A stretch of 64,000 nt of DNA from an uncultured Acidobacteriota bacterium (lineage in GTDB: Bacteria; Acidobacteriota; Thermoanaerobaculia; Multivoradales; UBA5704). Of the stretch, positions 46,409-48,648 are shown one piece after another; within the stretch, counting starts at the first letter, position 1; every line of letters begins with the position of its first letter. The position numbers and the translations under genes were made by a program. The stretch is taken from NCBI GenBank assembly GCA_963770895.1, contig CAVYRF010000001.1:1887472-1951471 (forward strand), written 5' to 3'. Below the pieces are notes generated by a model. It ran no database searches, had not been told where the DNA came from, and saw only the letters and a list, made by a program, of their open reading frames with translations.

Positions 46409-46599
46409 CGGACGTCGCCAGCTAACTACCTAGATGCAGGCCCAAAGAGACCGTGGCGACTTCGATCGCACCTTCTCTTACGCGAGACACGGCGCTGCGA
46501 ATGGGCAGGGCTGGCGCCCTGCCGCACCGTTGACACGGTGCCGCTCGCATTGCGCCTCCAGGCTTGCAGATAATTCGCAGGGCATGGTAAAACCGGTCT

Positions 46600-47394
46600 A
46601 TGGCTGTGGAGAAGCGATCTTCTACCGAGAAGCGGCTGACCAGCATTCTTAGCGTTCTTCTCCTGGCCGGAGCCGTGGTCCTGATATGGGTCCTCGCGTG
46701 GCGATATCTCGCCATTTCGCCGGAACCTATGGGTAGCGACCACAAAGCGCTCAGCGGAGTGGATCGGACCTCCATCGCCTTAAATGCATTATCCATCAGC
46801 TTGATTGTCATCACTGTGTTCATCGGCGGTTTGGCGGTTGTGGGTTGGGACAAGCTCGAAAAGATCATTCGACGCGATGTCGAAGAATCCATCAAAGATG
46901 ACATTATTTCCCTGGAGACGCTTTTCGAGGGCCGCGTGATTTCGATGCTCGGCTTCGCGATAGGTGAACTGAGCACCGCGCCGGATGAGATGGATGCAAC
47001 CAATCCGGGCCGGCTTTCGGAGGCCGTGGAGCACTGTCAGCGCGGCTACGAGTTACTTGAGAAAACGGGTCTGCGGCGCCCAATGCTGATGGGGCTCAAC
47101 AACCTCGTGTACTACTCCTCGATCTATGGGGACAAGGCGAAAGGCCGGTATCTTCTTCAGAAGGCACTTATCCTGCGCGACGCCGGTTATGAGCTGAACC
47201 GGCCGAGACTGCTCCTCACCTACTGTCGGGCACTTCTCCGGTACGGAACAACGCTGCAACAACGCGAGGAAGTTCAGAGCATTGCGTCCGAGCTGCTCCA
47301 TGGGACGCTCACAGATCAAGAAAAGACAGAGGCCAAGTTCTACCTTCAGCACTTGGCCTCTTTATCGCCTATAGTGCCTGACGCAGCAAAGTAG
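46600..47394 (+). CDS. Hypothetical 2-TM membrane-anchored protein encoded in a low-GC islet
   Basis: Two N-terminal TM helices (LTSILSVLLLAGAVVLIWVLAW; IALNALSISLIVITVFIGGLAVVGW) precede an approximately 170-aa soluble domain. GC is roughly 50-55%, well below the flanks. Confidence 0.6.
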   Translation: MAVEKRSSTEKRLTSILSVLLLAGAVVLIWVLAWRYLAISPEPMGSDHKALSGVDRTSIALNALSISLIVITVFIGGLAVVGWDKLEKIIRRDVEESIKDDIISLETLFEGRVISMLGFAIGELSTAPDEMDATNPGRLSEAVEHCQRGYELLEKTGLRRPMLMGLNNLVYYSSIYGDKAKGRYLLQKALILRDAGYELNRPRLLLTYCRALLRYGTTLQQREEVQSIASELLHGTLTDQEKTEAKFYLQHLASLSPIVPDAAK

Positions 47395-48648
47395 CTGCTG
47401 TGTCAGTCACGCCAGGGTTGCTCTTACGCGACGGGATCGATGCCGCTGCCTCCCATGGGCTTACCTCCATTCTATAGAGCAGCTGTTTGGGACTCCTACA
47501 TCAGCCCACGGGATCGACGGTGGAGCCACCTTGGATAACGCTCGGCGTCACGCCATGCGGACTCGCCAGATGTGTCGAGAACTGCAGCGTGTGAATAAGA
47601 AACTCTAGGAATGCAAGCAAATTTGATCCCTCCTTGTCTGAAATAGGTGCCGTGTTCAGCACGGCGGTGTATCCCATGGGTACCAGACACCGAGGCACCC
47701 AAAATGTTGAGATTGTTGCCAGCCTGTATCAGGTGCTTCGTATTGAGCCACTTGCATTTAGCTCTTATTCGGGTAACGGAGGGGAGAGATTCTGGTCGGA
47801 GGGAGAATCTGCGGGACGGTGGCTTCGCTATTGTCTCAGGCCGCAGTAAGGCCTTGAGGGCTTGAGTTTCGCCCAAGTCTCGCCACTCGTTATGGTCATG
47901 CTTCGAAGATGCTAACCTGCGCCCATTGAGAATGTCAAGAAAAGTTGCCTCTTGAGGTGCCCTGACGCCGATAGGAGCAGGAAGAGGCCTCGTGCGCACT
48001 GGGAAGCGCAAGCTGAGCGTAATCGACCAAGCCTCACTTGGTCCACCAATTTTCCGTGCATTCTTCTCTGCGTTATTCTGCATTGCTTGAAGTATCCGCT
48101 GGCTACTCTGATGGTGCAAGCTGCCTCGCCCAGAGGGACAAAGCTCCGGGCTCCGCCGCCGCGGAGACGTCTGAATCTTGCCTTGACGGTGGGGGTGCAG
48201 TTCGGCTAACGTGTTGATTCTTCTGCAAGGAGATGCCTTTGACGACTGCCGCCGCTGCTTGGACCTGCCAGGGAAGGTGTGCCTTGGCTGGACTCGCCGG
48301 CGAGGTTGCTGATCCCGCTTCTGGCGCTGCCGACGTTGGCGGCGCCGGCGCGATCGGCGGCCGATAGCTCAGCCGGTTTTGCGCGCTCGGTCCGCGGGCC
48401 GAGGGTGCGCCGCGCGCCAGTTGGTCGGCGGCGGTCCGTGTCCTTCCAGCTCGACCTCCCTTTGCTTTCGACGTAGCCGGGCGGCGCCACGTGTGGTGGC
48501 GGCCGCGCGCCCGCCGCATGCGGCGGATGGGGGCCTGTGCCTGCTGGCTTTGGGCGGTGCGGGCGCCGAACGTCAAATCTCTGAGGAACCGCGGCGCCAG
48601 GCGCCGCGGCCGCGGCAGCGATGGATTGCCGCGGACAGGGAGATCGCG

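Follow-up and report, generated by a model that had tools for sequence, protein, structure and literature searches.

A mobile low-GC cassette of an uncultured Acidobacteriota bacterium combines a membrane-anchored TPR protein with two very small peptides that share a co-varying motif

In the RRNPP and Rgg-SHP systems of Firmicutes and phages (Rap-Phr, PlcR-PapR, AimR-AimP), a protein of the tetratricopeptide repeat (TPR) fold is encoded beside a precursor of 40–60 amino acids (aa) whose N-terminus is hydrophobic and which ends in a short conserved peptide. Membrane proteins with a cytoplasmic domain stand beside one or two very small proteins in SpoIISA-SpoIISB/C, and in type I toxin-antitoxin pairs, where a small hydrophobic peptide is the toxin and an RNA the antitoxin, convergent transcripts may overlap at their 3′ ends (txpA-ratA and bsrG-SR4). 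TPR sensor fusions (TPR-S, PF20308; TIR-NLR and Avs-type proteins with C-terminal TPRs) carry exchangeable N-terminal transmembrane (TM) or TIR effectors on a constant C-terminal TPR fold. A locus of Escherichia phage P2_AC1 that encodes a TIR protein and two TM proteins protects E. coli against lambda, LF82_P8 and P2-like phages (Rousset et al., 2022, PMC9122126), and appears as Rst_2TM_1TM_TIR in other papers. Here we describe a low-GC islet at 46.4–48.2 kb of a 64,000-nucleotide stretch (hereafter the window) from an uncultured Acidobacteriota bacterium of the Thermoanaerobaculia (contig CAVYRF010000001.1, forward-strand positions 1,887,472–1,951,471), in which the gene for a 264-aa protein converges with two very small open reading frames (ORFs), ORF-A and ORF-B. 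That this is a mobile three-gene cassette, made of a membrane-anchored (or, in relatives, TIR-bearing) TPR protein and two peptides with a shared, co-varying motif, is solid, and we report its anatomy, conservation and mobility, the TPR fold, the swap of its effector module and the co-variation of its peptides.

The gene for the membrane-anchored TPR protein (46600..47394, plus strand), identified as an ORF and by family alignment, had been picked out in an earlier note on this DNA, made from the sequence alone, as encoding two N-terminal TM helices and no recognisable family, and both points hold. TM1 covers approximately residues 8–39, TM2 and a stalk helix residues 53–124, and a six-helix TPR-fold domain residues 136–255. 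This domain is a three-repeat TPR, i.e. a right-handed superhelix of tandem helix-turn-helix units that can be superposed on solved TPR domains, with RapH, RapI and PlcR-PapR among its structural matches. No family was found for the protein in Pfam, NCBIfam, PADLOC (E ≤ 1) or PHROGs, nor did it match any SLATT (Pfam SLATT_1–5), Abi or PADLOC effector model or, at E ≤ 1, any Pfam TPR model (TPR_1…TPR_19, TPR-S); PF20308 (TPR-S) was weakly matched by one of 37 relatives (E 8e-4). A search of the 264-aa sequence for helix-turn-helix (HTH), DNA-binding, phosphatase or other catalytic domains found none, its N-terminus being a 2-TM hairpin. Homologues numbered 27 (250–280 aa) in a word-indexed search and 342 cluster representatives at E ≤ 1e-3 in an exhaustive profile search, those with names coming almost all from metagenome-assembled genomes of Thermoanaerobaculia, Holophagales and other Acidobacteriota, and their alignment contains the conserved motifs GLNNLVYY, LLTYCR and EA..Y; R112, N167, Y150, Y208/R210 and E244 are among its invariant residues. 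The deposited annotation starts the gene at Met44 (221 aa), leaving out 46600–46728 and with it TM1; comparison within the family alignment supports the 264-aa start as the probable one. Four Lys/Arg residues precede TM1 and five lie just after TM2 (positive-inside), and the TPR domain is predicted to be cytoplasmic both because of these Lys/Arg-rich segments and because a cytosolic TIR is joined to this domain in the variants described below.

The 1.2 kb beyond this gene, previously read as lacking any convincing ORF, contain two conserved tandem mini-ORFs with Shine-Dalgarno sites on the minus strand. About 30 related loci have them as well, and the conservation is that of the peptides. In homologue loci, too, 700–900 bp without a called gene follow the TPR gene, save for one tiny antisense ORF. 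Nucleotide and six-frame comparison with the closest loci limited the conservation to approximately 250 bp directly 3′ of the gene, on the minus strand, and the conserved part of the gap consists of the two mini-ORFs and their ribosome-binding sites only. ORF-A (47501..47620, minus strand; 39 aa) starts with TTG after AAGGAGGG and encodes MLAFLEFLIHTLQFSTHLASPHGVTPSVIQGGSTVDPVG, with a hydrophobic N-terminus and a C-terminal …IQGGSTVDPVG; the public annotation of the genome calls a 58-aa version of it (47501–47677). Across loci, ORF-A is 38–60 aa in length and runs from a short hydrophobic N-terminus (M-x-W-L-L-L…) through a Pro/Ser/Ala-rich linker to the C-terminal motif [QDE]GG[ST]x[IVL][DE]P-x-G, an architecture kept in at least 17 loci (tblastn of the window against locus L001, E 2e-13). 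ORF-B (47424..47456, minus strand) encodes the leaderless decapeptide MGGSGIDPVA, which has no export signal, behind a Shine-Dalgarno site of its own (GGAGG, 6-nt spacer); elsewhere it comprises around 10–16 codons, typically M-G-G-[ST]-G-[IL]-D-P-x-G, and ORFs of this type with Shine-Dalgarno sites were seen at the same position in about 20 loci. The motif common to both peptides is GG[S/T]x[I/V/L][D/E]P-x-G, and AAGGAGG-type Shine-Dalgarno sites stand at canonical spacing before nearly all copies of ORF-A and ORF-B. The pair is convergent with the gene and at most about 200 bp downstream of it in approximately 28 loci, and lies elsewhere in the locus in L013, L022 and L052. In the window the Ser of the motif is encoded by AGC in ORF-B and by TCC in ORF-A, the DNA of the two copies being 74% identical over 23 nt, and this difference in coding speaks for selection at the level of the peptide, not of the DNA. 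Pfam and NCBIfam hold no family for either mini-peptide, a literature search on the peptide motifs found no paper, and a profile search for further ORF-A peptides gave only five matches, since such small ORFs are rarely called.

The Arg-rich antisense ORF of 207 aa at 47496–48119 (minus strand), which had already been judged to be of poor quality, was rejected as a gene and is spurious: it uses another frame, matches no family at useful E-values and shows no conservation beyond the mini-ORF region. Separately, locus L051 (1878–3556) encodes a protein of 88 aa that has a canonical signal peptide and carries a …ADGGSCIDPDGCRH motif at its C-terminus, adjoining a 444-aa protein with a zinc-finger anti-sigma-like N-terminus and TPR_12 repeats. 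Profile comparison showed no relation of the 444-aa protein to the 2-TM family (hhalign probability 0.6%), and L051 was therefore left out of the evidence; it may represent an independent use of a similar peptide motif.

The two peptides vary together. ORF-A and ORF-B of one locus agree in the residue that follows D-P in 12 of 15 loci, where 2.7 were expected (shuffle, P < 1e-5, in a statistic that ignores phylogeny), the shared residues being W/W, D/D, T/T, I/I, G/G and V/V, and the S/T position agrees between the two in 14 of the 15. This is the pattern that a common recognition partner would be expected to produce.

The N-terminal module of the protein is exchangeable. In L022, L052 and the cluster representative P0251 a TIR domain replaces the 2-TM module in front of this family's C-terminal domain, with TIR_2 scores of 41.5 and 32.3 bits in the fusions; the fused TIR matches the PADLOC model PDLC03016 ‘TIR-TM’ (E 4e-74) and shares 49% identity with gp02 of phage P2_AC1 (E 1e-44). 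Because L052 and L022 keep the ORF-A/ORF-B pair, the peptides go with the TPR domain and not with the membrane module. In L052 the two peptides end in MGGSSIDPWG and …DGGSGLDPWG, and an additional 351-aa gene runs divergently from the pair. The flavour of phage defence or abortive infection that the earlier note had sensed in the 2-TM protein is borne out circumstantially, by this replacement in relatives; on the window protein itself it found no purchase, as no PADLOC, Pfam (SLATT, Abi) or PHROG model matched. Between the peptide pair and the TIR-TPR gene of L052 (1184–2239) and L022 (2623–3732) lies a conserved protein of 351–369 aa, 77% identical between the two loci and without a match in Pfam, PADLOC or PHROGs, which may be a fourth component of the TIR variant.

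The islet itself stands out by composition. GC content between 46.4 and 47.9 kb is 0.526–0.578 in 500-bp windows vs a 64-kb mean of 0.722 (standard deviation 0.049), the deepest dip of the whole 64 kb, so that the computed profile confirms the GC drop first noticed by eye; codon usage agrees, with a third-position GC (GC3) of 0.67 in the 264-aa gene vs 0.89–0.92 in the flanking genes (a ferritin-like pair, rsgA and urocanase). Its edges were set with L054, a 95%-identical relative (JGI contig Ga0672864_0003311), which is collinear with the window at 95% identity over 37330–46402 and again over 48212–52818, the right-hand homology restarting by eye at approximately 48179, after a 21-nt indel. 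Because collinearity breaks at 46402 and resumes at ~48179/48212, we place the islet, i.e. the whole swapped-in cassette, at 46403..~48178. The left breakpoint is the last sense codon of the ferritin-partner gene, and in relatives at 80–84% nucleotide identity collinearity ends at window position 46395, with different content downstream in each. Between the two collinear blocks L054 contains a different, unrelated 1.1-kb segment. The suspicion of a foreign islet is thereby upheld, the segment being absent from a close relative with another gene in the slot and atypical in GC and GC3: it is a horizontally acquired cassette of approximately 1.8 kb. From its behaviour in the window and in L054, the slot between the ferritin-partner gene and rsgA appears to act as a replacement hotspot. 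In L054 it is filled (8961–10117) by a 291-aa HExxH (M50-like) multi-TM protein with a native-like GC3 of 0.84, no remnant of which was detected inside the window.

Elsewhere, too, the cassette looks acquired. In all 19 long loci the GC content of the gene and of the stretch downstream of it is much lower than that of the host, and in L001 direct repeats of the comM 3′ end (146 bp, 99% identical; 5356–5501 and 8086–8231) bracket a 2.6-kb low-GC island that holds the cassette and an Xre-type HTH gene and has no integrase. A comM-like Mg-chelatase gene adjoins the cassette in five loci (L001, L006, L033, L034 and L038). In the window a repeat search and the L054 alignment revealed no direct or inverted repeats flanking the islet, where an attachment remnant had been anticipated, and the tRNA/tmRNA scan found no tRNA at its edges.

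Promoter-like elements precede the mini-ORFs. A sigma-70-like promoter, TTGACA-18-TAGCAT (47909..47938, minus strand), matches the consensus at 10 of 12 positions approximately 290 nt upstream of ORF-A, and TTGAC(A/T)-N17-19-TAnnnT occurs 185–318 nt upstream of ORF-A in eight of 14 loci. A second conserved element, AAC-nn-TTT…N-GTGTCT(AGAAG) (47685..47708, minus strand), lies 60–80 nt before ORF-A and recurs as AAC-nn-TTT…GTGTCTAGAAG at a similar distance in 9–10 of the 14; its layout resembles what we take to be that of a promoter for an extracytoplasmic function sigma factor. The fold of the leader has a z-score of −1.7.

Downstream of ORF-B, a hairpin (47328–47361; inverted repeat I4) followed by a U-tract (47317–47327), together 47317..47361 on the minus strand, lies inside the 3′ end of the TPR gene, 33–77 nt within the plus-strand coding sequence and in its last conserved codons (..KEAKFYLASL..). 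A strong minus-strand hairpin with a U-tract was present downstream of ORF-B in all 15 loci folded. Over 36 loci the 9-bp helix is 75.6% paired vs 69.1 ± 1.2% in shuffled sets (0 of 500 reaching it) and 31–49% when slid. The helix changes on both sides in six of nine pairs, some of the changes altering both amino acids (e.g. EAKFYLAS to EVTFYVTS), and it is somewhat more complete at loci whose peptide operon adjoins the gene in convergent orientation (mean 7.7 vs 6.3 pairs, P = 0.018). We propose that the mini-ORF operon ends at this hairpin and U-tract, an intrinsic terminator that shares its sequence with a protein motif; the terminator would then lie inside the first gene, and the two transcription units would overlap at their 3′ ends.

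What the cassette does can be proposed from these sequences. Our favoured explanation, held tentatively and at a little below even confidence, follows toxin-antitoxin or abortive-infection logic: the peptides would dock onto the TPR domain in the cytoplasm and keep an N-terminal killing module inactive. The first gene would contribute the N-terminal two-helix membrane module, the long stalk helix and the cytoplasmic three-repeat TPR domain, and the convergent small bicistronic operon a peptide of approximately 40–60 aa, probably exported or membrane-associated, together with a bare cytosolic decapeptide, both being putative cognate ligands of the TPR domain. In the ligand-bound state this domain would hold in check an effector that is presumably toxic, i.e. 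a 2-TM module that would perturb the membrane in this cassette, or a TIR NADase in some relatives. Loss of the short-lived peptides or of their mRNA, for instance during phage-induced shut-off, might then set this effector off, giving the cassette a possible role in defence. Such peptide gating explains why the peptides stay linked to the TPR domain across effector types, why one of them is a leaderless cytosolic decapeptide, why the module is swapped with a validated defence TIR and why the cassette is mobile.

Several observations weigh against this explanation. It does not explain the exported look of ORF-A, whose hydrophobic stretch measures 8–12 residues, with A-x-A-like sites in some copies and Cys pairs around the motif in a few (L008/P0293, P0296); if ORF-A is exported, its motif would be across the membrane from the TPR domain. 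The ORF-A of the window lacks the ATG of its closest relatives, so its start must be TTG, and approximately eight divergent loci with enough flank have no detectable peptides. For the window protein no model of PADLOC, Pfam or PHROGs gave a match, and TIR was seen in only two of 37 longer members, plus L022. The family was absent from the viral contigs and plasmids searched, and the neighbouring genes are not those of typical defence islands. Finally, since the co-variation statistic takes no account of phylogeny, the W-type loci may form one clade.

A more specific version of peptide gating, which we regard as doubtful, is that the decapeptide and a secreted paralogue with the same specificity residue together gate a TPR-coupled killing effector (2-TM or TIR NADase), as an undescribed conflict or immunity class. 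If true, an ‘antitoxin’ peptide inside the cell would be tied to a ‘public’ copy outside it, merging toxin-antitoxin logic with peptide kin signalling in soil bacteria that are Gram-negative.

The build of ORF-A, with its short hydrophobic N-terminus, Pro/Ser-rich linker and conserved C-terminal motif, also resembles that of a precursor, and the cassette could instead serve peptide signalling or kin recognition without any killing, ORF-A being a secreted pro-peptide with its C-terminal motif as the signal, in the manner of RRNPP or Rgg-SHP, the membrane-TPR protein its receptor and the residue after D-P the mark of ‘pherotypes’. That one motif residue varies by locus and is the same in both peptides would suit such a scheme, as would the Xre-type HTH genes adjoining the peptide operon in some loci (e.g. 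L001, 7679–7903). We nevertheless think it unlikely, as the 264-aa protein has no DNA-binding or enzymatic output domain, its TPR domain is predicted to be cytoplasmic and the leaderless ORF-B decapeptide has no role in a secreted-signal scheme. Moreover, the TIR swap suggests a killing or NAD-depleting output, and the family belongs to Gram-negative Acidobacteriota, with no linked Opp-type importer at the inspected loci.

ORF-A, possibly with ORF-B, might alternatively be a bacteriocin-like antimicrobial against which the 2-TM protein protects its producer as an immunity protein. Two adjacent small ORFs beside a membrane-protein gene in a mobile, variable islet have this look, and so do the hydrophobic N-terminus of ORF-A, the motif-flanking Cys pairs of the few members mentioned above and the polymorphic peptide residues; yet no peptidase-ABC transporter, accessory or modification gene was seen at any inspected locus, the G-G is part of the C-terminal motif rather than a double-glycine leader boundary, and ORF-B has 10 aa and no leader. 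A classical immunity protein would not need a large conserved cytoplasmic TPR domain, nor does an immunity role explain why cytosolic TIR fusions without a TM module keep the peptides, and we consider this reading improbable.

Beyond the promoter-like elements, the remainder of the islet (47939..48178, approximately 240 bp, low GC) is without conserved ORF or structure: six-frame and nucleotide comparison revealed no similarity to other loci, Rfam gave no match and the two strands of 47940–48250 have folding z-scores of +1.0 and +1.8, as unremarkable as that of the leader. The approximately 470 bp before rsgA (48179–48648) are GC-rich and native DNA, since they are 95% conserved in L054. They lack clear codon-position periodicity, and the palindromes noticed in them are short GC-rich GGCGCCGGCGC-type repeats. 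A search of the whole window with Rfam 15 at gathering score gave nothing relevant and no match in 46.3–48.75 kb; at permissive settings the sole match in that interval (25 bits, a lentiviral frameshift element) fell in the native GC-rich part and is due to chance. With these results, and no transposase, integrase or other gene remnant by six-frame comparison, the degraded mobile-element gene and the small RNA once suspected in the gap find no support. That the gap from 47.4 to 48.6 kb is decayed mobile-element DNA, a small RNA gene or an attachment remnant, and the 264-aa gene alone functional, is highly improbable, because its conserved signal is at the peptide level, with Shine-Dalgarno sites, no repeats flank the islet and 48179–48648 is native, even though att-like repeats surround the L001 copy, the peptide mRNA, which would run antisense to the TPR gene at its 3′ end, could double as a regulatory RNA, and the 240 bp at 47939–48178, for which alone this reading survives, are unaccounted for and not conserved elsewhere.

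Some features of the surrounding DNA are worth recording. The native spacer before rsgA contains a 65-aa ORF (48279–48476, plus strand) that is also called in L054 (10185–10382) with few amino acid changes, in a region where codon-position GC periodicity is not clear. Directly downstream of rsgA, 49828–50531 (minus strand) encodes a 141-aa ORF and a 93-aa MazE-like ORF (PF04014, flagged as weak by the source), which look like a candidate toxin-antitoxin pair and are conserved in L054. A second, shallower GC dip (0.60–0.62 at 15700–16200) falls inside a 605-aa ORF (14957–16774, plus strand) with an N-terminal hydrophobic segment. ARAGORN called an 86-nt tRNA-Gly(GCC) with its anticodon at position 30 in an 80%-GC stretch (52986–53071, minus strand), which is unusually long and may be a false call.

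Two lessons are independent of mechanism: ‘non-coding’ DNA beside orphan genes of high-GC metagenome-assembled genomes can hide conserved genes of 10–40 codons missed by annotation pipelines, and a conserved protein motif can share its DNA with a transcription terminator of the other strand. As the family, with its approximately 340 cluster representatives, is absent from Pfam, NCBIfam and PADLOC, current defence-system finders would miss it. If peptide gating is true, the cassette would be a compact effector under genetically encoded 10-residue peptide ligands, a new wiring between a TPR sensor and killing modules of the TM or TIR kind, and would provide rare peptide-receptor specificity pairs outside Firmicutes.

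Among known systems, the cassette recalls RRNPP in its arrangement, having a TPR-fold protein beside a small candidate precursor that starts with a hydrophobic segment and ends in a short conserved peptide, whose residues differ between loci as specificity types would. Unlike RRNPP, its protein has a 2-TM or TIR module instead of an HTH or phosphatase domain, there is a second, leaderless decapeptide gene, the genes are convergent with an embedded terminator common to both, the hosts are Acidobacteriota and no sequence homology exists. With SpoIISA-type and type I toxin-antitoxin systems it shares a membrane protein with a cytoplasmic domain beside one or two very small proteins and, if the terminator is as proposed, would share the convergent 3′ overlap; there is no homology, and the roles of peptide and partner assigned in type I pairs are the reverse of those proposed here. 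The P2_AC1 locus is, like the TIR variants (L052 and L022, 49% identical in TIR), a small cassette of a TIR and small TM proteins on mobile DNA; the window cassette, in contrast, has no TIR and P2_AC1 no such peptide pair, hhalign probabilities against the family profile are <1% for all three P2_AC1 proteins, and the 2-TM/TPR protein is not homologous to the TM proteins gp03 and gp04 or to the C-terminal part of the TIR protein. TPR sensor fusions likewise set exchangeable N-terminal TM or TIR effectors on a constant C-terminal TPR fold, whereas the cassette protein has no STAND NTPase, is very small (approximately 260 aa) and is linked to dedicated peptide genes lacking there. TPR sensors, exchangeable TM/TIR effectors and small peptide partners are each of a known kind; their combination was not encountered in Pfam, NCBIfam, PADLOC, PHROGs or Rfam, nor in the literature searched.

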